DNA from: Candidatus Latescibacterota bacterium
GTDB lineage: Bacteria; Latescibacterota; UBA2968
Reading direction: 5' to 3'
NCBI GenBank assembly: GCA_965205975.1
Contig: OZ242195.1
Span: forward strand, 144,202-208,201
Length of the DNA stretch: 64,000 nt
In this document: in pieces, positions 4,490 to 61,878 of the stretch
How positions within the stretch are numbered: the first letter of the stretch is position 1
Layout of the letters: every line of letters begins with the position of its first letter
The notes under the pieces: generated by a model
Databases searched by the model: none
Told to the model about the DNA's origin: nothing
Seen by the model: only the letters and a program-made list of their open reading frames with translations
Translations under genes and position numbers: made by a program

Positions 4490-5443
4490 ATGACTACCCA
4501 TTCCGACCTCACATTCATCACAAATGAAAAAGGCCAAAATCTTCTTGAGCGGTTTAAGGTGCTGATCAAAGACACAGAATTTTTTGATGTCCTCGTCGGC
4601 TATTTTTATACCAGTGGTTTCCACGCGCTTTATCGATCACTGGAGAGAACGAAAAAGATCAGAATTCTCATCGGTATCAGCACGAATAGGCAAACACTCA
4701 ATCTGATTGAGCAGGCACGCCAGCAAGAGCTTCAATTTTCCCACGCGGAGACGAAGGAGCATTTTTCCGATCTACTTATTGGAGAGATGGCAAATGTTGA
4801 AGATAACAAGAAGGTTGAACAAGGAGTGACAAAGTTTTTGGAGTGGCTGAAAATCGGAAAGTTGGAGATTAAGGCGTATCCCACGGAGAATATCCATGCC
4901 AAGCTCTACATCATGTCTTTCGGTGAGGACGACCGTGACGTTGGGCGTGTGATCACCGGGTCGAGCAACTTCACGCAGTCCGGCCTGGTAGATAATCTTG
5001 AGTTCAATGTAGAACTCAAGATGCGCTCCGATTATGACTTTGCCAGGCAGAAGTTTGAATATCTCTGGGGAAATGCTGTTGATGTGAAAGATAAATATAT
5101 TGAGACCATTCAGAAAAACACATGGCTTAATAATGCTATTACTCCCTACGAGCTTTATCTCAAGTTTCTCTATGAATATTTCAAGGATGAGCTTCGCCAA
5201 ACCGATGAAGTGATCTTCAAGTACATTCCAACGGGGTTTAAGCGACTGGAATATCAGGAACAGGCCGTCCTGAACGCAAAAAAGATTCTTGAAGAGTACG
5301 GTGGGGTTTTTATTTCAGATGTCGTGGGACTTGGAAAAACTTATGTATCCGCCATGCTGGCAGGCCAATTGTGGAGTTACCCCGCTTCGGTGGAGAGTTT
5401 AGGGCTTGTGTATCAAGCCTGTGATAGATGCAACTTTTCATAA
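4490..5443 (+). pseudogene. 5' fragment of a PLD-family nuclease / SNF2-like SF2 helicase fusion gene, truncated after helicase motif I
   Basis: The HKD phospholipase-D nuclease motif is present (HAKLYIM..x..GSSNFTQSG). The helicase Q-motif and Walker A follow (YQEQAV ... DVVGLGKTYVSAML). The ORF then ends abruptly at 5443, where the IS3 remnant begins. Proteins of this architecture are usually around 1000 aa. The fragment is about 40% GC, with an AAGGA RBS. Confidence 0.65.
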
Positions 5444-5444
5444 G

Positions 5445-5906
5445 CTATCGGCGCATAGTAGGCGATGGAAGAATGCCTGCGATGCGGATTATACCATCCT
5501 TCCAAGTGGGTACATAAGTGATGTCAGCCACAGTGAGTTTATTGACCGTTGGCACAGTAAAGTCGCGCTTTACCAGATCAGGAGCCTTATCAGACCGTTG
5601 CGCCTTACGCGTCGTTTGCGTGCTCTTGCGGCGAGAAACGCCACAAATGCCCATCTCACGCATCAGACGCGCTACGCGCTTCTTACCTACAAGGATACCC
5701 ATATCCATCAGGTCTTTAAAGATGCGAGGGGCACCATAGGTGCTATCTGATCGGGTATGAAAGGTCTTGATATGCTTCTTCAAGTCTGCATCAACCTTTG
5801 CTCGTTTAGAGGGTGGACCTGCTCGCCAGGCATAATACCCACTGAGGGAAACACCCAGGACTCGGCATTGCGTGGCGATAGGCCAAAGGGCCTGGTGCGC
5901 TTTCAC
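5445..5906 (-). pseudogene. IS3-family transposase OrfB, N-terminal fragment only
   Basis: See the mobile element entry. The catalytic rve domain is absent. Confidence 0.7.
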
Positions 5907-6217
5907 GAACGCGAAGATTTTCCAGGGATCGCGTCGGTCTCCGCTGCGAACCAGGCCGCTGCTTTTGACAATATCTCGCGCTCGATGCGCAACTGCTTAT
6001 TCTCACGTCGAAGACGACGTAACTCTTCGCGCTCATCGCTCTTCAGACCATCTTCTCGAAGGCCCTCATCTCGATCAGCCTGGCGTATCCAGTTTTGGAT
6101 CGTCTGAGCGGTTGGCTCAAACTCTTTGGCCAACTCGGATGGAGAGCGACCAGCGCGCACAAGCTCAACGATCTGGCGCTTCAACTCGGATGGATAAGGC
6201 GGACGTGTTGGTGGCAT
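5903..6217 (-). CDS. IS3-family transposase OrfA (HTH)
   Basis: See the mobile element entry. 104 aa with a GAAAGGAG RBS. Confidence 0.75.
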   Translation of the reverse strand: MPPTRPPYPSELKRQIVELVRAGRSPSELAKEFEPTAQTIQNWIRQADRDEGLREDGLKSDEREELRRLRRENKQLRIEREILSKAAAWFAAETDAIPGKSSRS

Positions 6218-6620
6218 AGTGGGTCTCCTTTCTTACTACTCATAAGGTACCCACCGAAACGGGTCAAGTCCATCAGAAAGTTACTACTTAAAGATGAGAA
6301 GTTTGCTCACATCCGCTACCTTGATCCTGAGAATCAAAAAAGCCAAAAGAAGCAACTCTATAATCCCAACATTCTGCAAGAGTTGGATAAGTATTACCGG
6401 AAGCATGAGAAGTCTGATAAGCGCTCGTGATTTCTTGCTATATTCGCTATGCGTAGTGTTATTATCTCCTGATCCGGAACTATGGGTATCTTGATAGTGC
6501 CGAAACCAAACCCATTATGAAAAACCAAAATGTAATCGGAAGATCAGCAAATCGTGGATCTGTGGACTTGATAGATATTGCTGAACAAGGTGTGGATGAA
6601 TAGTTTTGATAGGTATCACA

Positions 6621-8054
6621 ATGGCAAGGTCTCGTCCCAATATCGTACTTGTAATGTGCGACCAGATGCGCTGGGATGCGGCTGGTTTTGCGGGTAGTTC
6701 TGTTGTTCACACGCCCCATCTGGATCGTCTATCCGAGGGTGGTGTGTGCTTTGAAAATGCCTATTGCGCTTCTCCTGTTTGTTCGCCCGCTCGGGCGAGT
6801 TGGTTAACCGGGTGCTATCCCCATGCTCACTTGCAATTGCGAAATTACGGGCCACAACGAGGAAAAGACTGGGGGAGTTATCTGCCGCAGGACCGCGTTA
6901 CAATGGGGGATGTTTTGAAACGCGCGGGATATCGCTGTGGCATGGTTGGTCCGTGGCATCTGGGCGATGATCATGCCCCGCAACACGGGTTTGAGGATTT
7001 CTGGCAGACCTATCGATATCTCGGCGACGAATATACAGATCCTCTTTTCGATTATTTCGAACGCGAGGGGGTACCCAATCTCTACAGCGATAAGGAAGCC
7101 GTCACGCAATACGGAAATATTCTGGCGTTTACGACACTTACAGATCCGCGACAGCAGCGTACGACCTGGACGGTTGACCGCGCGATTGATTTTTTGCGCC
7201 AGCGAGAAGATGACCCGTTTTTTCTTTTTGTGAGTGTTAAGGATCCGCATCCCCTCATCGTTATCCCACCCGAATTGCTTGAACTCTATCCGGTAGATCA
7301 AATGCCCTTGCCTGATTCTCTGCGAGACCCACTTGAGGGTAAACCGGATTTTCAAACCCGCACAAAATTTCGCATGCCCAATACAGTGACAGATCGGCAG
7401 TTCCGCGAGATGATGGCGTACTATTACGCCCTGATCACCCATATTGATGCGGAGGTCGGGCGTCTGATTGGCGTTCTTGAAGAACAGAATATGCGCGACA
7501 ATACGCTCGTGGTTTTTATGAGCGATCACGGCGAACTGCTCGGCGATCACGGTTGCACAGAAAAGTGTCTGATGTACGAAGCCTCGGTCAGAGTTCCTTG
7601 TCTGCTTTCGTGGCCGCGTGCGCTCCCAATGGGTTTGCGCGTGACGACCCCGCTTGCCGGTGTTGATTTGATGCCGACTTTGCTCGATCTGGCAAACGAG
7701 GCGTTGCCCGAGAAAATCGATGGTCGTTCCGTTGCGGACGCGATCCTGAATGGTCGGCAGCCGAAACCTCAGCCCATTTTTGCCGAAATAGCCAGCCAGG
7801 AAGCCATTTATTGGGGGTCAACAGAAAGGGAGCAGTTTGCCGCGCATGTGATGAATTTCGATGGTCGCTGGAAGTATATTCGCAATCGTTTTGATATCGA
7901 TGAATTGTACGATTTAGAGACAGATCCGGGCGAAATGCAAAATCTCGCGCAGCTTTCCGAATATCAACCGCGCATTATAGCTATGCGCCAGCAAATCGCC
8001 GAGATGATTTGCCATACAGGCCCTGGTCCCTACGACTGGTGTTTGCAAGTGTAG
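6621..8054 (+). CDS. sulfatase (formylglycine-dependent arylsulfatase family), no signal peptide
   Basis: N-terminus MARSRPNIVLVMCDQMRWD and the sulfatase signature C-S-P-A-R in AYCASPVCSPARASWLTG. The C-terminal GDHG motif is also present (SDHGELLGDHG). Confidence 0.85.
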   Translation: MARSRPNIVLVMCDQMRWDAAGFAGSSVVHTPHLDRLSEGGVCFENAYCASPVCSPARASWLTGCYPHAHLQLRNYGPQRGKDWGSYLPQDRVTMGDVLKRAGYRCGMVGPWHLGDDHAPQHGFEDFWQTYRYLGDEYTDPLFDYFEREGVPNLYSDKEAVTQYGNILAFTTLTDPRQQRTTWTVDRAIDFLRQREDDPFFLFVSVKDPHPLIVIPPELLELYPVDQMPLPDSLRDPLEGKPDFQTRTKFRMPNTVTDRQFREMMAYYYALITHIDAEVGRLIGVLEEQNMRDNTLVVFMSDHGELLGDHGCTEKCLMYEASVRVPCLLSWPRALPMGLRVTTPLAGVDLMPTLLDLANEALPEKIDGRSVADAILNGRQPKPQPIFAEIASQEAIYWGSTEREQFAAHVMNFDGRWKYIRNRFDIDELYDLETDPGEMQNLAQLSEYQPRIIAMRQQIAEMICHTGPGPYDWCLQV

Positions 8055-8077: not shown

Positions 8078-9025
8078 ATGAGGGAATCAACAGATCTTGC
8101 GGAGGATGGTGCTATTCCATTTGAGGTGTTTGCGGGTTTTGAGCGGCTTGAGGATGTTAACCCTATCATTGCCTGCGAGCCGCCAGAGTGGGCAGCCGCA
8201 GCCCATGCATTTGTGATGGATGATACGGTGCACTATTTGTGGGGAAGAAGAAAAGAAGGCAATTATTGGGTTTTAATGCATAGCACAGCTCCGGTGAAAG
8301 ATCCCGCAAAGATCGCGCACGATTCGCGCAATCCCGTGCTTTTGCCTTCGGGCGAGGGGTTTGACGATTATACAATCGAATATCCTTTTCCGTTTTGGAA
8401 TCCCGCCGATGGCAGGTTTTATGTTTATTATTTGGGGCGACGACAAAAGCCGCCAAAGCAGACTGGTCTATTGGTGGGCGATGGCGATTTTGGCAAGTGG
8501 ACGCGCGTTTGTCAGACGCCTGTGATTGCCTCAGATACCGCGCATGAGCGGCAGGGTTCGTCGCATCCCTCGGTTGTGGTGGTAGATGATACCATACATA
8601 TCATTTATACGGGGGAGTCGGCAGAGCCGCCGACCTTATGCCACGCGACCGCGCCGACAAGCGATCCCGCGGCTGTTACCAAAGATTCCGCAAATCCCAT
8701 TTTTACGGGTAGCGGAGAAATGTGGGATAGTTGTGGTGTCCGAGAGGCTGAGATTTTTAAGGGTCCACAGTATTTCCATCTCTTTTACGGGGGGTCCGAT
8801 GGCGAGGCCTGGCGGATTGGGCATGTGCGAACGCGCGATTTTCGCACCTTTGAACCCAATCCACACAATCCAATTTTTTCGCCCTCGCCAGATCCCGATG
8901 CATGGGACTGCGACGGGATACTAACGCCTCAGGTGATTGAAATTGACAACCGCTACTACATGGTCTATGCGGGTATGCGGGGGCGTGAGTGGCAGACGGG
9001 ACTCGCGGTAACGCGATCTGTATGA
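8078..9025 (+). CDS. five-bladed beta-propeller glycoside hydrolase-like protein (GH43/GH130-like fold)
   Basis: Repeated blade-like segments, for example VHYLWGRR ... YWVLMHSTAP, RFYVYYLG, TIHIIYTGES, YFHLFYGGSD and RYYMVYAGM. An AAAAGGAGGA RBS precedes the ATG at 8078 and there is no signal peptide. Family assignment is tentative. Confidence 0.5.
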   Translation: MRESTDLAEDGAIPFEVFAGFERLEDVNPIIACEPPEWAAAAHAFVMDDTVHYLWGRRKEGNYWVLMHSTAPVKDPAKIAHDSRNPVLLPSGEGFDDYTIEYPFPFWNPADGRFYVYYLGRRQKPPKQTGLLVGDGDFGKWTRVCQTPVIASDTAHERQGSSHPSVVVVDDTIHIIYTGESAEPPTLCHATAPTSDPAAVTKDSANPIFTGSGEMWDSCGVREAEIFKGPQYFHLFYGGSDGEAWRIGHVRTRDFRTFEPNPHNPIFSPSPDPDAWDCDGILTPQVIEIDNRYYMVYAGMRGREWQTGLAVTRSV

Positions 9026-9026
9026 C

Positions 9027-10127
9027 TCAGTCTTTCAGAACGCGGTTGGGCGTGTACTGGTTTGTGTAGTGACGCATGTTTCCCACGGCGTTGTTCTGTT
9101 TGATGGCGTCAGCGGGGAAGGTATGGAGAAACCAGTTGTTGTAGATTTCAGCACTTTCCTGGGGGATACCCCGAATGACTACGGCGGGTACACTAACGGC
9201 GCGAAAGGTGTTGTGGTGGATTAACATAAGATCGCCAGCGATGTGCGTATCGTCACCGCGATCCCGGCCGCCGTGCATGTCAAAGCTGTGGCTGTTGGCA
9301 TTTTCCAAAATCAGGTTGTAACGGGCTTCGTAGCTGGTGCCAGGTCTTCCAGTGCCTGCAATGTGGTGGCGGCACCAGTCGAACAAATTGGCTTCGATAA
9401 GGGCGTTGGATTGGTCCAGCACCACGCCGTAGCCCAGGCCGTAGCGCTGATTGTGGTGAAAGTAGTTGTGATGGATGTGGTTGTCCGTTGAGCCTGCCCG
9501 CAGGAAGATCGCGGCGTGGCTCCAGCCCCAGAGTTCGCAGTTATCGACTTCGAGGTTGGGATATTCGGTCTGGATGGCGCGGGAGTTGGGTATGCTGTAG
9601 TAGCGCCCTTCGGCATGGAGTTGTCTCATTTGCTCGGTGCGTCTGAGGGTGTCCGGTCCCCGGAAGCGAAGGCCGGTGATGCGGATGTTGGGTCCGGCGG
9701 CGATAAAGAGGGGTATGGTTTCGAGTTGTTTGGAGTAGAGCAGGGCGCCCTGGGAGCCGGGTTTGCCCCGGCCGCTGGCGAGCGTGACGCCTCCGCGTAT
9801 GGTGATGTTCTGATGTCCAGTCAGGTCGATTCTGATGGTATCTACTATATAGACTATCTGGTTGGGACCGGCGAACTGGAGAGCGTCGAACAGTTCCATG
9901 CGGTTTGTGACCAGGAATACAGATGGGTCAACCAGGCGGTTATAGCCCTCGCCACCGCCGATGGGATTGCCAGTGGGGTTGATGTCGGCACCGAATTTGT
10001 CATCTGAAAGCAGGGGTTTTTCCTGCTGTCCGTTGCCATCTGATGTATCGGGATTGAGAGGTTTTTCTTTTTCAGAACAGGCAAACAGAAGGAGCAAGGC
10101 GGTGAGATATCTAAGCGTTCTTGACAT
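9027..10127 (-). CDS. right-handed parallel beta-helix repeat lipoprotein, polysaccharide lyase/hydrolase-like
   Basis: The N-terminus MSRTLRYLTALLLLFACSEKE carries a lipobox (L-F-A-C). Beta-helix repeat signatures follow (NHIHHNYFHHNQRYGLGYGVVLDQSNALIEANLFDWCRHHIAG ... LMLIHHNTF). A GGAG RBS lies 7 nt before the ATG at 10127. Confidence 0.6.
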   Translation of the reverse strand: MSRTLRYLTALLLLFACSEKEKPLNPDTSDGNGQQEKPLLSDDKFGADINPTGNPIGGGEGYNRLVDPSVFLVTNRMELFDALQFAGPNQIVYIVDTIRIDLTGHQNITIRGGVTLASGRGKPGSQGALLYSKQLETIPLFIAAGPNIRITGLRFRGPDTLRRTEQMRQLHAEGRYYSIPNSRAIQTEYPNLEVDNCELWGWSHAAIFLRAGSTDNHIHHNYFHHNQRYGLGYGVVLDQSNALIEANLFDWCRHHIAGTGRPGTSYEARYNLILENANSHSFDMHGGRDRGDDTHIAGDLMLIHHNTFRAVSVPAVVIRGIPQESAEIYNNWFLHTFPADAIKQNNAVGNMRHYTNQYTPNRVLKD

Positions 10128-10248
10128 GTCAATCTCCTTCTTTATTTCAAAATGATTGATCAATCAAAAACTACGGCAATTCAGCCGATTGATCAAGTCG
10201 AATAGAAGTCCTATCAACACGGGACCACTCAAGAGAAAGGAGTTCGCA

Positions 10249-14894: not shown

Positions 14895-15329
14895 GTGACT
14901 TTCTTGATAGGATATTATCTTTGGCTAAAAGTTGTACATCTCATCGCCATGATTGGTTGGATGGTCGGTATTTTGTATTTGCCGCGGCTGTTTGCCTATC
15001 ACGCCGATGCCTCTGCTGATACGGATGAGACATTTCAACAGATGGAATACAATCTTATGCGGCTTCTGCTTATGCCCTGTATGATTGTCGTTTTTATTAC
15101 GGGCATTCTCTTGATTTTTGCAACAGGGAGCCTGACGAGCGGGTGGCTTCACACCAAATTTTTACTTGTTCTCATGCTCGCGGGATTGCACGGTATGATG
15201 TCGCGCCAGCGCAAGAATTTTCAACGCGGCGAAAATACCAGAAGCGCGGCGTACTTTCGCACATTTAGCCACGTTACAACGCTTATTGTGATTCTCGTTG
15301 TCGCGCTGGCTGTTCTGAAACCTTTTTAG
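14895..15329 (+). CDS. hemJ: protoporphyrinogen IX oxidase HemJ (CopD-like 4-TM protein)
   Basis: YLWLKVVHLIAMIGWMVGILYLPRLFAYHAD is the conserved HemJ N-terminus. There are 4 TM helices over 144 aa, a GTG start and a GAGGAG RBS. Confidence 0.75.
   Translation: MTFLIGYYLWLKVVHLIAMIGWMVGILYLPRLFAYHADASADTDETFQQMEYNLMRLLLMPCMIVVFITGILLIFATGSLTSGWLHTKFLLVLMLAGLHGMMSRQRKNFQRGENTRSAAYFRTFSHVTTLIVILVVALAVLKPF
15171..15194. repeat. direct repeat copy 1 inside hemJ (ctcatgctcgcgggattgcacggt; extended imperfect repeat about 15138..15194)
   Basis: A perfect 24-bp copy recurs at 16119..16142. With the upstream gagcgggtggct block, the similarity extends to about 55 bp. Confidence 0.8.
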
Positions 15330-15341
15330 TGGGAGTGAAAC

Positions 15342-16091
15342 ATGGCAAACGACGAATTTGTAATTCCGCGACGATTGATCAATTCGGACCGGGAGGAAAC
15401 ACCGAGGTCCTTGCTGGACCTGATTGAACAGGGGCCATTCGATTTGGACACGGCGGCGTGGTGGATGTCGCATGTGACGAATGGGGCTTCGTGGATCGTG
15501 GGGTCGGGTCCGGGTGGGATCGGGAAATCGACGACGATGCGTTCCTTTCTGAGCGTTGTACCCGGGGACCGGGTATTTGCGATCGCGATGCCAGGGGAGA
15601 TCCCACCGCTCGCGGATCAGAAACGCTGCACTATTGCGCTCGAGTTGAGCGATCATCGGCCGCCCGGCTACCTTTGGGACCAGGACCTGCGTGACTTCTT
15701 CGACCTATCGAAGGTGGGACACCAGCTTGTGGGGAATGTCCACGCGGATACTTTGGAAGAGACGCGTGAACAGATCGTCGGGGCGTGTAGCGTTCCCGAG
15801 GAACAGTTCCATCACATCAATATCATTGCATTCGTCTGGCTGGAAGGTTATGAACGCGGAAACAGCAGGCGGATCAGGGATCAGACGTCGCGGCGGTTTC
15901 TGACAAGCGTGCACTACACCGATGGTTCAGGTGCCCACGAGCAAGTCTATTCGGAAGGGTCAGGGCTCTCGCCCGACGCACCGAGGGATGTGGCGCACGA
16001 AGCAAAGTGCCGAACTTTTTTGGAGGAGGCATTGGGAGAAGCGTCGCGGGATATGGATGAATTGAGGGAGCGATATCTGGCCTGGCATTAG
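15342..16091 (+). CDS. P-loop NTPase of unknown function on a GC-rich insert (weak resemblance to the VirB11/CpaF-type secretion ATPase core)
   Basis: Walker A GSGPGGIGKSTTM at residues 54-66; a possible Asp-box DRVFAIAMPGE and a Walker B-like NIIAFVWLEG. The gene is about 60% GC against roughly 50% for its neighbours. A GGGAG RBS precedes the ATG at 15342. Confidence 0.55.
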   Translation: MANDEFVIPRRLINSDREETPRSLLDLIEQGPFDLDTAAWWMSHVTNGASWIVGSGPGGIGKSTTMRSFLSVVPGDRVFAIAMPGEIPPLADQKRCTIALELSDHRPPGYLWDQDLRDFFDLSKVGHQLVGNVHADTLEETREQIVGACSVPEEQFHHINIIAFVWLEGYERGNSRRIRDQTSRRFLTSVHYTDGSGAHEQVYSEGSGLSPDAPRDVAHEAKCRTFLEEALGEASRDMDELRERYLAWH

Positions 16092-16118
16092 GAGCGGGTG
16101 GCTCATACCAAAATTCTA

Positions 16119-16142
16119 CTCATGCTCGCGGGATTGCACGGT
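16119..16142. repeat. direct repeat copy 2 (extended about 16092..16142), a decayed duplicate of hemJ codons ~85-101
   Basis: See copy 1. Confidence 0.8.
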
Positions 16143-16151
16143 CAAGCGTAC

Positions 16152-16188
16152 ACAAAAAATCGCGACTTCTAAGAATGGAAGTCGCGAT
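16152..16188 (-). terminator. rho-independent terminator of ssrA
   Basis: Perfect 11-bp stem atcgcgacttc / gaagtcgcgat with an 8-nt loop, followed on the minus strand by TTTTTTGTG. It lies directly 3' of the tmRNA CCA end. Confidence 0.75.
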
Positions 16189-16197
16189 GCAAGTTAT

Positions 16198-16582
16198 TGG
16201 TGGAGGCGGCGGGAATCGAACCCGCGTCCGAAAGCAGTTTGATAACGGCATCTACGTGTGTAGTCTATTCACTTAGGATCTCGCATCTCGCGCCCCAACA
16301 GACAGGGTCGCTGAGATGCCAGCCCGATGGTTGGGGCTGTGGCCCGCTCTCATCCGGAGGCCCTCGAGCGGAAACCCCCGCACCAGCCTGCTCTCGTCGG
16401 CGCTCTGCCCAGACCACGCAGGCAAGGTCTGAGAGAACGGACTGCGTAACGGTTAGTTAGGCAGCCATTGCGTACGTGTTATCGTCCGCAGTTGCGTTTT
16501 TTCCCAATTGTTTTACGAGGTGATTGGGCACCTCGACACGCAGCTATTATCTCCCCACCCCCGTCGAAGCCGTGTCGCCCCC
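16198..16582 (-). ncRNA. ssrA: transfer-messenger RNA (tmRNA, SsrA)
   Basis: The 5' end is GGGGGCGACACGGCTTCGACGGGGGTG, the tmRNA tRNA-like 5' consensus. The 3' end is GCGGGTTCGATTCCCGCCGCCTCCACCA (T-arm plus acceptor/CCA). The internal tag reading frame is GCA ACT GCG GAC GAT AAC ACG TAC GCA ATG GCT GCC TAA, giving ...ATADDNTYAMAA-stop, matching the canonical ...YALAA degradation tag. Confidence 0.9.
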
Positions 16583-16594
16583 ATTACATTTAAA

Positions 16595-16623
16595 AATATA
16601 TCTAAGTTAATCCTTCCAGTCAA
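16595..16623 (-). promoter_or_regulatory. sigma70-type promoter of ssrA
   Basis: On the minus strand: TTGACT (16623..16618), an exact 17-nt spacer and TATATT (16600..16595), 12 nt upstream of the tmRNA 5' end. Confidence 0.6.
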
Positions 16624-50938: not shown

Positions 50939-52225
50939 ATGTCTGCCGCGTCAAAAACGCCGCGCCATATTGCATTGGATATCCTCTGTCGCGTTGAACG
51001 GGGCGCTTATCTCGACCGTTTGCTCGACGCGCAGCGCGAACATATTCGCGGTCCCGATGGCGATTTGCTTCAGCATCTCGTTCGGGGTACGCTGACCAAT
51101 CGGGCGCGGCTTGATCATATCTTGACGCCCTATCTCAAAAAACCCCTGTCCAGACAGCACGCCAAACTCCGCAATCTCCTGCGCCTCGGTGTTTATCAAC
51201 TCCAGTATCTCGACCGCGTGCCATCTTATGCGGTTGTTTCTGAAGCTGTTATTCTCGCTCGTCATATTCTCGGGGAGCCGATTGCGAAATTGGTCAATGC
51301 TGTGTTGCGCGGTGTGGCCGAAGATCGCAAGCCTGTTGTTTTTCCCGATTTTGATAGCGATCCCGTCGAATATCTCGCCATTGCGACATCACATCCCCAA
51401 TGGCTCGTCACGCGGTGGATCAAACGCTATGGCATAGATGAGACACGCGCCCTGTGTGAATTTGACAATGCCCAACCCGCCCTCACTATTCGTCCCAATG
51501 CGTTGCGAACGACGCCCGATGCCCTGCGCGAGCAACTCGCTATTGAGGGGATTGACACTGAATTTGCAACATCCGATCTCCTCGCCGTATCCCATGTGGG
51601 CCACCTTTTTCAGAGCAGGGCTTATTGCGCTGGTCTCTTTAGCGTTCAAGGCGCGGGGGCTGCAATGGTTGTTCCACTGCTCGATCCGCAACCCGGCGAG
51701 GCTGTTCTCGATTTGTGTAGTGCGCCCGGCGGCAAAACCACTGCTATGGCGGAGCGCATGAAGAATCGGGGTTTTATTCTTGCTACAGATCTCTATCCGC
51801 GCCGTCTCGAAATAGTAAAACAAAACACGCATCGGCTCGGAGTTTCATGTGTTTATCCACTCGCTGCCGATGCGTGTTATTTGGCTGTCAACCGCTTATT
51901 TGATCGGGTTCTGGTCGATGTGCCCTGTTCCTCGCTGGGTATTCTGAATCACCATCCCGACCTGCGCTGGCGGAAGTGTGATATTCAGGACCTTGCGCGC
52001 TTGCAACGCGCCCTTATCGAACGCGCTGCCGATTACGTCTGTCCAGGTGGTGTTCTCGTCTATAGTACTTGTACCCTCGAACCCGAAGAAAATGAGCGCG
52101 TTGTCGAAGCTTTTTTAAGCGATCATCCGGGCTTTCGAGTTACCCATCCCTATCTGCAATTGCTACCCCATCAAACTGGTAATGACGGTGTTTTTGCCGC
52201 GCGGTTGCATAAGACGGCTTCTTAG
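50939..52225 (+). CDS. rsmB: 16S rRNA (cytosine967-C5)-methyltransferase RsmB/Sun
   Basis: NusB-like N-terminus; SAM motif LDLCSAPGGKTTAMAE; catalytic DVPCSSLG and TCTLEPEENE. Confidence 0.85.
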   Translation: MSAASKTPRHIALDILCRVERGAYLDRLLDAQREHIRGPDGDLLQHLVRGTLTNRARLDHILTPYLKKPLSRQHAKLRNLLRLGVYQLQYLDRVPSYAVVSEAVILARHILGEPIAKLVNAVLRGVAEDRKPVVFPDFDSDPVEYLAIATSHPQWLVTRWIKRYGIDETRALCEFDNAQPALTIRPNALRTTPDALREQLAIEGIDTEFATSDLLAVSHVGHLFQSRAYCAGLFSVQGAGAAMVVPLLDPQPGEAVLDLCSAPGGKTTAMAERMKNRGFILATDLYPRRLEIVKQNTHRLGVSCVYPLAADACYLAVNRLFDRVLVDVPCSSLGILNHHPDLRWRKCDIQDLARLQRALIERAADYVCPGGVLVYSTCTLEPEENERVVEAFLSDHPGFRVTHPYLQLLPHQTGNDGVFAARLHKTAS

Positions 52226-53721
52226 GCCAACTCGTAGTGCCTGCGGTCAGGCTGAGGCACTGGCCGGGCATCTTCGGTGTTTATGCTCCAGTCGGCGAGT
52301 CGCAGTCGCATGTCGGCGAGGGCGTCGCGATGTTGTTCTTCGTCGATCACATTGACCAACTCGCCTGGGTCGGCGACGAGGTCGTAGAGTTCGTCGCGAT
52401 CTCCCATGGGGTCGTGGACGTACTTCCACTGGCGGGTGCGGACCATCTTGCACCGACCGGCTGCCTCGCGCCACTGCAAGGTGTCAATCAGGGTCTTGCG
52501 GCCCCAGGGTTGAGGTAGCTTTTCCAGGTCGGACATGGTAAAGAGCGGTCCTCCACTTCCGTATTCGGAAAAAGTCGCGTCCCGAGGTGCGGCTGCAGTC
52601 ACAGTGGGCAGTGGTATTCCGTGCATGGAATTCGGTTGGGCCATTCCTTGCAAGTGCAACAGCGTGGGTACCACGTCGATCAGATTGGCCATGCTTTGAT
52701 CGCGCACCCCGGCGGTGACCTGCCCGGGCCAGGAGACGATCAGCGGCACCCGAGTCAGGCTGTCGTAGAAGACTCCGCCTTTGCACTGCATGGCGTGTTC
52801 CCCCATAAAGTCGCCGTGGTCCGAACAAAAGACGACAATCGTCTGCTCTCGCAGCCCCAGTGCATCGAGTTTGTCGAGTATTTGGCCGAGTGCGTCGTCG
52901 ATAAAGCGCACCATACCAAAATACGAGGCCATAACGCCATAGAGATCTTCAGTCGAATCGCGGCGCATTCCCAGCATCTGGTAGAGCGCGCGGTTGCGCT
53001 CGGGGGCGCGTTCGTCGTCAAATTCGTCGTCGCGCCAGGGGGGAAGGTCAATGTTTTCGGGCGGAAACAAGGCTGCATACTCGGCCGGGCACAGCCACGG
53101 TTCGTGTGGATCGGGAAAAGAAACCCACAGGGCAAAGGGCTGGTCCTGGTGCTTTTCGATAAAGCGCGTCGTCTGTCCAGCGATCAGGCCGGTGGAGTGG
53201 TCCTCTAAGGGTAGTTCGGAGGTGCCGTAGCTGAAGCGGGGGTTCTGATGGGCGAGCTGGCGATTTTCGGCGGCGACCTTGCGGCGGCCTTCTGCCGGGC
53301 GGAACCAGTCCATGCCCCGCGTCTCTTCGCCGCTACCGCCGTGGGTACCGGGGTTCCACACATCGAAGAGGGCCAAATCCTCTTCCTGTTCGAAGCAGTG
53401 GTTTTTGCCGATCAGGCCCGTGGCGTAGCCCGCCGCTTTCCAGAGTTGCCAGGCGTGTTCGGCACCGGCTGGCATCAAGGTCTGGTTGCGTCGGCCCCCG
53501 TGCGAGTGGGGAAACTGCGAGGTCCAAAATGAGATGCGTGCTGGCACACAGAGTGGGTGCGGGGTGATGGCGTTTTCAAAGAGGACTCCGCTGGCGGCCA
53601 GGCGTTCCATCGACGGGGTTTGGCAAAAGGTGTTGCCGTAGAGATGGCTGGCTGTGGCGCGCTGTTGGTCAGTCATGATTACGAGGATGTTGGGGCGGTC
53701 AGTCATGGTGTTTTTGCTCAT
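52222..53721 (-). CDS. sulfatase (formylglycine-dependent), no signal peptide, GC-rich
   Basis: NILVIMTDQQR ... the sulfatase signature C-V-P-A-R in HPLCVPARISFWTS ... CSDHGDFMGEH. About 58-60% GC. It starts 5 nt downstream of sat. Confidence 0.85.
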   Translation of the reverse strand: MSKNTMTDRPNILVIMTDQQRATASHLYGNTFCQTPSMERLAASGVLFENAITPHPLCVPARISFWTSQFPHSHGGRRNQTLMPAGAEHAWQLWKAAGYATGLIGKNHCFEQEEDLALFDVWNPGTHGGSGEETRGMDWFRPAEGRRKVAAENRQLAHQNPRFSYGTSELPLEDHSTGLIAGQTTRFIEKHQDQPFALWVSFPDPHEPWLCPAEYAALFPPENIDLPPWRDDEFDDERAPERNRALYQMLGMRRDSTEDLYGVMASYFGMVRFIDDALGQILDKLDALGLREQTIVVFCSDHGDFMGEHAMQCKGGVFYDSLTRVPLIVSWPGQVTAGVRDQSMANLIDVVPTLLHLQGMAQPNSMHGIPLPTVTAAAPRDATFSEYGSGGPLFTMSDLEKLPQPWGRKTLIDTLQWREAAGRCKMVRTRQWKYVHDPMGDRDELYDLVADPGELVNVIDEEQHRDALADMRLRLADWSINTEDARPVPQPDRRHYELA

Positions 53722-60557: not shown

Positions 60558-61746
<1,189 letters not shown>

Positions 61747-61764
61747 AATAGAATTATGATTGTC

Positions 61765-61790
61765 ATTGCGGCATGATTTTGAGCCGCAAT
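61765..61790 (+). terminator. hairpin terminator after mdh
   Basis: Perfect 8-bp stem attgcggc / gccgcaat with a 10-nt U-rich loop. The trailing T-run is weak. Confidence 0.45.
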
Positions 61791-61832
61791 CCAGTGGTTT
61801 TGAGCCGCCATACGCGTATAGCGGTTCCTGAG

Positions 61833-61878
61833 TCAGCCCGTTCAATCTCCCCAATAGAAGGGTAGTTGGACGGGCTGA
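61833..61878. other. long hairpin (9-bp perfect stem tcagcccgt / acgggctga enclosing a partly paired 28-nt loop) 37 nt upstream of the methyltransferase gene
   Basis: Read directly in the sequence; function unknown. Confidence 0.5.

Follow-up and report, generated by a model that had tools for sequence, protein, structure and literature searches.

What brought a GC-rich gene into the gap between hemJ and the transfer-messenger RNA (tmRNA) gene ssrA of a Latescibacterota bacterium, and why does a broken copy of part of hemJ lie behind it? The locus stands in 64,000 nucleotides (nt) of contig OZ242195.1 (assembly GCA_965205975.1, Candidatus Latescibacterota bacterium, positions 144,202 to 208,201 of the forward strand), a stretch that we call the window, and the gene encodes a protein of 249 amino acids (aa) that resembles the ATPase domain of GspE and FlaI. 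An earlier interpretation made from the letters of the window, here the sequence-only reading, took the locus for the remnant of an element that had integrated by ssrA, lost its integrase and kept one cargo gene, with the hemJ repeats as the signature of its insertion. We lean, by a modest measure, towards two events of different age, a primary insertion of the ATPase gene and a later scar of illegitimate recombination. Comparing 16 congeners with four outgroups allowed an old, fixed acquisition to be told apart from the later scar, and the locus illustrates that a repeat-flanked gene of odd GC content beside ssrA need not be an integrase island. The argument refers to the following parts of the locus.

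14895..15329, plus strand: intact hemJ, encoding a HemJ/UPF0093-family protoporphyrinogen oxidase of 144 aa (full-length PF03653 match, E 6.6e-43)
15130..15194, plus strand: segment inside hemJ (nt 236-300) that resembles the downstream fragment (repeat families D1 and D2, 24-mer search, outgroup alignment)
15330..15341, plus strand: 12-nt spacer between hemJ and the ATPase gene, with a Shine-Dalgarno-like GGGAG (read from the sequence)
15342..16091, plus strand: open reading frame (ORF) of 249 aa, a stand-alone GspE/FlaI-type C-terminal ATPase domain (sequence, fold, motifs)
16085..16142, plus strand: dead hemJ fragment (hemJ nt 236/241-300, with indels of -1 and -6 nt; repeat search, alignments)
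16143..16158, no strand assigned: pre-terminator spacer, CAAGCGTACAC and an A-run, linking the fragment to the terminator (alignments)
16159..16188, minus strand: intrinsic terminator of ssrA, an 11-bp stem and then TTTTTT on the minus strand (terminator search)
16198..16582, minus strand: ssrA (tmRNA), tag peptide ADDNTYAMAA, 3' end towards the insertion (ARAGORN; Rfam RF00023, 189.7 bits)
16595..16623, minus strand: sigma-70-like promoter upstream of ssrA, TTGACT-17-TATATT (consensus match only)

The intact hemJ, the Walker A-bearing ORF, the hemJ-derived fragment, the ssrA terminator and ssrA itself all lie where the sequence-only reading had placed them. Beyond ssrA follow genes for an epimerase, a UDP-glucose dehydrogenase, an ornithine carbamoyltransferase (OTCase) and a DHH protein, and this order around the interval matches that of outgroup L024.

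The ATPase gene occupies the same position in all 16 congeners, each of which has the order PhyH-hemJ-ATPase, and ssrA, the epimerase gene and the UDP-glucose dehydrogenase gene follow in those whose locus reaches far enough. The congeners are the window, L001/L002 (counted as one) and 14 loci, L007-L019 and L021; a scan of species representatives with HemJ gave 15 Latescibacterota loci with HemJ 92-97% identical, and two near-identical metagenome contigs (L001/L002), with an ATPase 95% identical, add one genome. The outgroups retain the order QueC-aminotransferase-deacetylase-PhyH-hemJ, with HemJ 64-75% identical, and have no ATPase gene. From the hemJ stop codon to the CCA end of ssrA they have 70 nt (L023) or 97 nt (L024), with the terminator alone between; L020 has a 608-nt hemJ-ssrA spacer that holds neither the ATPase gene nor a detectable remnant, and L025 has ~4 kb of unrelated genes at the site. 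Empty sites beneath the same upstream synteny make the ATPase gene a derived insertion, and the comparison shows that it entered in the common ancestor of a single genus-level clade of Latescibacterota. The ancestral arrangement, to judge from these outgroups, is hemJ, terminator and ssrA, with the two genes convergent.

The idea of a single-gene insertion between hemJ and ssrA is thereby borne out by the 70-97 nt in L023 and L024. The locus is neither a recent island nor one confined to a strain, since every one of the 16 genus-level genomes carries the gene at the same place. Relatives sharing the gene at the same site had been named beforehand as evidence that would count against an island, and this is largely what we find (16 of 16), although the composition of the gene is indeed atypical. 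Within the clade the ratio of nonsynonymous to synonymous divergence (dN/dS) of the ATPase gene is 0.09, and its dS is 0.21, against 0.26-0.44 in the flanking core genes. By these measures the gene is old, fixed in the genus and evidently under purifying selection.

Could the gene instead be ancestral here and have been lost from L020, L023 and L024, its GC excess reflecting the amino-acid and codon preferences of its family? Family members are spread widely through Latescibacterota, Poribacteria and Handelsmanbacteria, and in other genomes the gene's GC content tracks that of the host (range 0.41-0.74), usually lying slightly above it, both of which would suit such a history. We nevertheless consider it very improbable. 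The tight hemJ-terminator-ssrA junctions of L023 and L024, the remnant-free spacer of L020 and the unrelated genes of L025 all argue against loss, and so does the setting of the family's other members, which is in every case an unrelated one, including that of the 88%-identical homologue of the clade's gene, which sits elsewhere in its own genome.

That homologue, in L003, is the nearest outside the clade (88% aa and 82% DNA identity, dS 1.05), and it lies on a 7.4-Mb contig between an alcohol dehydrogenase gene and an aldo-keto reductase gene, in a locus of 57% GC. By BLAST, the DNA similarity between L003 and the clade covers the gene only and ends ~6 nt past the stop codon; aligning the 3' flanks by hand extends the match by ~17-25 nt past the stop (GCGGTGGA..CCCTTCGA). 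The outgroup contigs L023 and L024 are among the aminotransferase matches (87% and 86%) and the HemJ matches (73% and 74%) and are not among the ATPase matches, and the L003 contig has the reverse pattern, these being match lists and not whole-genome searches. Composition is consistent with a foreign source: the ATPase ORF has a GC content of 0.575 and a GC content at third codon positions (GC3) of 0.664, its six neighbours have 0.46-0.52 and 0.50-0.53, and 300-nt windows peak at 0.61. The sequence-only reading was right that the ORF is GC-rich against neighbours near 50% and atypical in composition (GC3 66% against ~51%), and overstated the figure itself, giving 60% where the whole ORF has 57.5%. 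The whole window has a GC content of 0.505, and at least three other long ORFs in it have similar GC3 (0.63-0.73), which makes the ATPase gene an outlier, not a unique one. The gene was probably acquired by horizontal transfer from a relative of higher GC content.

Two small sequence features occur at these loci. Short GGTGGACGG-type repeats flank the ATPase gene of L003 at 5882-5896 and 6798-6812; of L003 and L004, both inspected for repeats on either side of the gene, only L003 showed any, and there only this short motif. At the empty site of L024, the hemJ stop region (5436-5450) reads TTTTTGAGCGGTGCA and has GAGCGGTG in common with the native 3' flank of the ATPase gene, which may be the microhomology of the primary insertion or may be chance.

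The second question is what the hemJ fragment records. A perfect 24-nt repeat joins 15171-15194 to 16119-16142, and a wider similarity pairs 16085-16142 with 15130-15194 across two indels (-1 nt and -6 nt), so that the perfect repeat and longer imperfect duplicate described earlier both stand, with their extent corrected to hemJ nt 236-300 (codons 79-100). With up to 3 mismatches allowed, the 64-kb window has no further copy of the 24-mer, and 100 shuffles yielded no match; the earlier suggestion to look for additional copies is thus answered for the window. The left end of the fragment overlaps the last 7 nt of the ATPase ORF, and the first 10 nt past its stop codon (16092-16101) are GAGCGGGTGG, a sequence found also at 15137-15146, inside the hemJ nt 236-300 segment. 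The segment between the two copies consists of hemJ nt 251-435 and the ATPase gene.

Among the congeners, 10 of 16 read ATPase-TAG-GAGCGGTGGATCCCCTTCGAC... and have no hemJ fragment, this flank running into an opposite-strand gene for a 376-aa AXE1-like alpha/beta-hydrolase (GC 0.64). The GAGCGGTGGATCCCCTTCGAC-type flank resembles that of L003, which identifies it as the native flank of the ATPase gene. The other six (the window, L001/L002, L007, L009, L017 and L019) read TAG-GAGCGGGTGGCT... and then continue as hemJ from nt 251. As hemJ nt 239-255 reads GCGAGCGGGTGGCTTCA, the ATPase flank and hemJ both contain GAGCGG(G)TGG, and the junction falls inside this microhomology of 9-10 nt (hemJ nt 241). 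The fragments differ in length, from ~95 nt in L019 through 58-59 nt in the window and L009 to 28 nt in L001, L007 and L017, and all six have the same 6-nt deletion, which points to a single origin. Those of L009 and L019 retain two bases (GGCTACACGCC) of outgroup hemJ that occur in no resident hemJ allele. When the window is compared with L009, identity is 88% for the fragment, 94% for the ATPase gene and 98% for the terminator. The fragment, on this evidence, is a non-functional and apparently decaying remnant of the 3' portion of hemJ, and the 10 genomes that have the gene without it show that it is not required for the presence of the gene. It looks like the scar of a secondary illegitimate recombination, not like an att site or a target duplication.

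Past the stop codon, the alignment of the window, L009 and L017 runs through the fragment, the pre-terminator spacer and the terminator to ssrA. The terminator hairpin is kept in the outgroups L020, L023 and L024 and in relatives with type A and type C alleles. The spacer at 16143..16158 weakly resembles outgroup L023 (CAAGC...ACAAAAAATCGC), possibly by chance; we had considered this CAAGC match as proof of an ancestral pre-terminator and downgraded it, as it spans only 5 nt.

These observations bear directly on the first explanation of the locus, that a site-specific element entered at hemJ/ssrA, that the hemJ copies are its attachment sites (attL/attR) or a target-site duplication, and that its integrase was lost. 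A segment of unusual composition beside ssrA does lie between direct repeats, variable DNA of the relatives does abut the CCA end of ssrA in what is a hotspot, and ssrA is a known integration target (PMC3146451). We give this explanation almost no credence. An att site or target duplication should recur as a repeat pair in every carrier genome; the copy is seen in 6 of 16, at 28 to ~95 nt, and the other 10 have the gene with its native flank and no repeat, so the repeats are not the signature of its insertion. The repeat is imperfect, with indels, and its length differs between genomes; on the left it starts at a microhomology shared with the flank of the ATPase gene, and not at a conserved att core. 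What is repeated is hemJ sequence, and ssrA has no 3' direct repeat: the 24-mer of its 3' end (up to 3 mismatches) and a 15-mer (up to 2) each occur once in the 64-kb window, and BLAST of ssrA against 22 loci matches the gene itself only. The absence of an integrase was noted correctly, there being none among the window genes next to the interval, and no recombinase is seen by the interval in the window or in the relatives' versions as far as these are annotated. Mutator-type insertion sequence (IS) transposases are present in the L001/L039 loci. Of the marks of an integrase-type ssrA island, then, we find neither a recombinase at the edge, nor a distal ssrA repeat, nor presence/absence polymorphism of the ATPase gene, which is fixed in the clade.

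The ssrA genomic islands (GIs) of Dehalococcoides offer the nearest comparison. They are bounded by ssrA and a direct repeat of ~20 bp of its 3' end, and come with a recombinase module (PMC3146451). Foreign or variable DNA directly downstream of the 3' end of the tmRNA gene is common to both systems, as is the presence of several cargo sets at one locus among relatives. The insert in the window differs in lying beyond the terminator, in having a repeat from hemJ and in lacking an ssrA repeat and a recombinase.

A history of two events, which we somewhat favour, would run as follows. A small GspE/FlaI-like ATPase gene was inserted, as the comparison shows, into the short gap between convergent hemJ and ssrA, and at least ~25 nt of its own 3' flank would have arrived with it. 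Later, DNA of an allele bearing hemJ and the ATPase gene would have paired homologously with a recipient, either in PhyH or in the 5' portion of hemJ; its far end would have joined illegitimately at GAGCGG(G)TGG inside the recipient's hemJ, leaving downstream what the recipient already had, namely the 3' end of its hemJ, the terminator and ssrA. The dead piece of hemJ could then have lost different internal parts in each genome, giving the differing lengths and, in the window, 58 nt.

We infer for this secondary event a mechanism of the homology-facilitated illegitimate recombination (HFIR) type. As described in PMC6382021, which cites de Vries & Wackernagel 2002, HFIR works from a single homologous anchor, its joins being made at microhomologies of 3-10 bp. 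At our locus the alleles share 92-99% identity over PhyH-hemJ-ATPase, which gives extended homology on one side, and the other side is the microhomology junction GAGCGG(G)TGG. The likeness to the HFIR systems reported in PMC6382021 (de Vries & Wackernagel 2002; Prudhomme 2002; Meier & Wackernagel 2003) thus lies in the long one-sided homology of PhyH-hemJ, in a GC-rich junction of 9-10 nt within the 3-10 bp range given there, and in the addition of non-homologous DNA. Unlike those systems, the present case is read from a natural scar alone, in uncultured bacteria, and the recipient sequence was kept as a displaced fragment and not deleted. As a genomic feature this is an ordinary kind of event, well resolved here. 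Outside laboratory transformation, few natural scars that combine a homologous side with a microhomology junction have, to our knowledge, been described.

The same junction could have arisen by tandem duplication, if GAGCGGGTGG of hemJ crossed over unequally with the GAGCGGTGG that follows the ATPase gene. A second unit of hemJ 3' end and ATPase gene would then have stood behind the first, and almost all of this copy would later have been deleted, leaving the 58-nt piece. Such a duplication predicts exactly the junction observed, in which the end of the unit is joined to its start at a microhomology; the fragment is nearer to hemJ alleles of the clade than to those of outgroups, and some relatives have a duplicated snippet of the ATPase 5' end. 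On the other side, not even part of a second ATPase copy was found directly past the hemJ fragment in any genome examined, and the longest fragment (L019) runs into terminator-like sequence and not into a second ATPase gene. The fragment also retains the two bases that no resident allele has, and the ATPase snippet of type C and D alleles lies beyond the hydrolase gene, where duplication of a simple unit would not put it. Taking these together, we think this origin unlikely.

Decidedly less credible to us is a third route, in which the window allele derives by deletion from a large island allele with helicase, hydrolase and other genes, and microhomology-mediated template switching during repair copied ~60-95 nt of the nearby hemJ into the deletion junction. 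In its favour, two snippets whose source lies 1-2 kb upstream (hemJ nt 241-335 and ATPase -20..+31) are found at rearrangement junctions, and in L001, L007, L019 and L040 the helicase insertion has the fragment as its left edge. The single-origin fragment is, however, common to island-bearing and island-free alleles, and L017 looks like an island-free precursor of the helicase alleles, not a derivative of them. L007, which has no terminator, and L040, whose terminator comes without the CAAGCGTA spacer, cannot give the window allele by simple deletion; for these two that derivation is ruled out by the difference in terminator and pre-terminator content.

Several points nonetheless weigh against the two-event history. 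The events are ordered by parsimony and by a flank similarity of ~17-25 nt to just one genome from outside the clade, L003. Tandem duplication with deletion, or templated insertion at a deletion junction, gives the same junction, and the second duplicated snippet (the ATPase ribosome-binding site (RBS) and 31 nt by the terminator) is unexplained by the simple model. Among the genomes examined, no member of the clade has an ATPase-free site such as the postulated recipient would have had. For the primary event, absence of the ATPase family from the outgroup genomes was judged from match lists only, and the GC excess is moderate (+7 points) where family members elsewhere lie 0-6 points above their hosts.

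The contents of the interval from the ATPase gene to ssrA vary widely, and among the 16 congeners only this DNA is polymorphic. The gap is empty in the window, L009 and L017 (the minimal allele), and in 7 genomes it holds the hydrolase gene alone, abutting the CCA end of ssrA with no terminator. L010 and L012 have the hydrolase gene, a duplicated ATPase RBS with the first 31 nt of the gene, and the terminator; L011 has the same and a binding-protein-like ORF. L007 has the fragment, a helicase gene and the hydrolase gene, and L040 has an island of ~9 kb with the helicase gene, three or four unannotated genes, the hydrolase gene, the ATPase snippet and the terminator. Neighbour-joining trees are star-like, with allele types scattered over them, and the trees of the left and right flanks are incongruent; the history of the alleles is not resolved by them. 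Scattered allele types and disagreeing flank trees argue for exchange by homologous recombination, and the pattern indicates that the gap is a probable hotspot at which alleles with different cargo are swapped in this way. The locus thus reveals, in an uncultured phylum, a hotspot at which recombination swaps the DNA that separates a fixed gene from ssrA.

Several details of these alleles are worth recording. The hydrolase gene (376 aa, AXE1-like; L013 9267-10394, minus strand) has equivalents in 11 relatives, and its dS of 0.19 is the minimum of the locus. In type B alleles the region upstream of the hydrolase gene abuts the CCA end of ssrA, and the ssrA terminator is missing. The duplicated ATPase RBS and 31 nt lie at 10705-10752 in L010, 11640-11687 in L011, 10530-10576 in L012 and 19535-19585 in L040, and this 5' snippet lies past the hydrolase gene, immediately ahead of the ssrA terminator.

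In L001, L007 and L019 a degenerate terminator-like stretch (L001 6782-6829, L007 9226-9274, L019 about 1156-1201) ending GTTGATGG precedes a gene for a superfamily 1 (SF1) helicase-DUF559 protein, and GTTGTTGG, the counterpart of GTTGATGG, abuts the CCA end of ssrA elsewhere. From this correspondence it appears that the helicase island entered an allele like that of L017, in the interval from its terminator to the 3' end of its ssrA. The start codon of the helicase gene overlaps the GTTGATGG boundary, and the gene may depend on read-through from hemJ-ATPase. The ATPase gene itself is probably co-transcribed with hemJ; a promoter search of the window found no promoter-like site between the two. 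In L010, and in this genome only, the hemJ-ATPase spacer (8437-8644) has an extra insert of ~170 nt with inverted ends GTCATTCTGAGCG...CGCTCAGCATGAC, which looks like a miniature inverted-repeat transposable element (MITE) or a repetitive extragenic palindromic (REP) element.

What protein was acquired? The 249-aa product, which includes GSGPGGIGKSTTM, gave an AlphaFold2 model (39-sequence alignment) of pLDDT 88.9 and pTM 0.89. Foldseek places this model with GspE/FlaI-type ATPase domains (E 6e-10), the TM-score normalised to the target being only 0.34-0.38, and in a profile search of the PDB the pre-P-loop helix, Walker A and His box align to FlaI (E 2e-4). The profile matches fall in the C-terminal half of targets of 500 aa, from residue ~224-233. 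The faint VirB11/CpaF-type likeness suspected earlier, and the fold and profile check proposed for it, therefore both came out in favour of a distant VirB11/CpaF/FlaI-type ATPase. The protein has the Walker A motif at G54-T64 and a His-box-like GHxLVGNVHAD, and its fold is that of the C-terminal RecA-like ATPase domain of T2SSE (PF00437). It has no match to PF00437 at E<=1, and distant members reach 15-17 bits against a cut-off of 24.9; scans of the protein with Pfam, NCBIfam, PADLOC and PHROGs gave nothing significant. Invariant in the family alignment are Walker A, E101-x-S-D-H, Y110, W112, N132-x-H134-x-D136, R177 and R185. E101 ends the strand 95-102, and distant members have hhhHEIG; E101 is thus a putative Walker B glutamate, assigned by position and not by a scored alignment, with what would be a family-specific insert after it. 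No Asp box is recognisable in the aligned family sequences.

The family is sizeable and unannotated. Its members in Latescibacteria, Poribacteria and Handelsmanbacteria metagenome-assembled genomes (MAGs) include 132 homologues of ~250 aa with 45-57% identity, all annotated as hypothetical, and a profile search gives 375 clusters at 50% identity (E<=1e-10), nearly all of 225-275 aa. A scan of viral contigs for relatives found none. Neighbourhoods differ in every lineage, with no recurrent orthologous neighbour, and platform, pilin and secretin genes were absent beside family members in at least 10 independent neighbourhoods. A GFO/IDH/MocA oxidoreductase gene lies directly downstream at 4-5 loci, and we rejected it as a partner, as these genes are paralogues only 23% identical, bar one related pair.

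The closest known systems are GspE (PDB 2OAP) and FlaI (4II7/4IHQ), ATPases of archaeal-type secretion and assembly that belong to the PilB/PilT/VirB11/CpaF 'T2SSE' superfamily. From GspE and FlaI the 249-aa protein differs in having no N-terminal (PAS-like) domain, which those proteins need for their hexameric clamp cycle, in falling below the Pfam T2SSE threshold with no recognisable Asp box, in the insert SDHxPPxYLW past the putative Walker B glutamate, and in a gene that, in the neighbourhoods examined, is never next to platform, pilin or secretin genes. Model and motifs suggest that the protein is most likely an active, oligomeric, stand-alone P-loop NTPase with no pilus or secretion apparatus; a point against this is that ATPase activity, oligomeric state and function are all read from fold and motifs only. 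It would be a long shot to hold that it founds a family of FlaI/GspE-type ATPases that have dispensed with the N-terminal domain and act alone, possibly as a single-gene motor for DNA handling or against phages. Three findings would suit that idea: the tmRNA-adjacent hotspot elsewhere holds GmrSD and an SF1-helicase/DUF559 nuclease, the gene hops singly between unrelated contexts, and one relative is fused to HTH_17. This relative, the distant member P0341 from outside the window, carries an N-terminal HTH_17 (excisionase/MerR-type) domain ahead of the mini-ATPase and is the family's only hint of a role in DNA. With neither N-terminal domain nor partner genes, these mini-ATPases of Latescibacterota, Poribacteria and their relatives are the part of the present findings that may merit follow-up.

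Two further observations concern the surroundings. Long ORFs of raised GC3 in the window lie, all on the minus strand, at 9027-10163 (0.668), 52222-53721 (0.726) and 60757-61854 (0.628), against a background of ~0.51, and are possible further acquired genes. The gap between the deacetylase gene and PhyH is a second small hotspot ~2 kb upstream: an IS (Transposase_mut) and a GmrSD_N-type gene lie there in L001/L002 (1638-4682) and L039/L040 (5638-8682), and L021 has an insert of ~1.8 kb at the same point (about 5370-7146).

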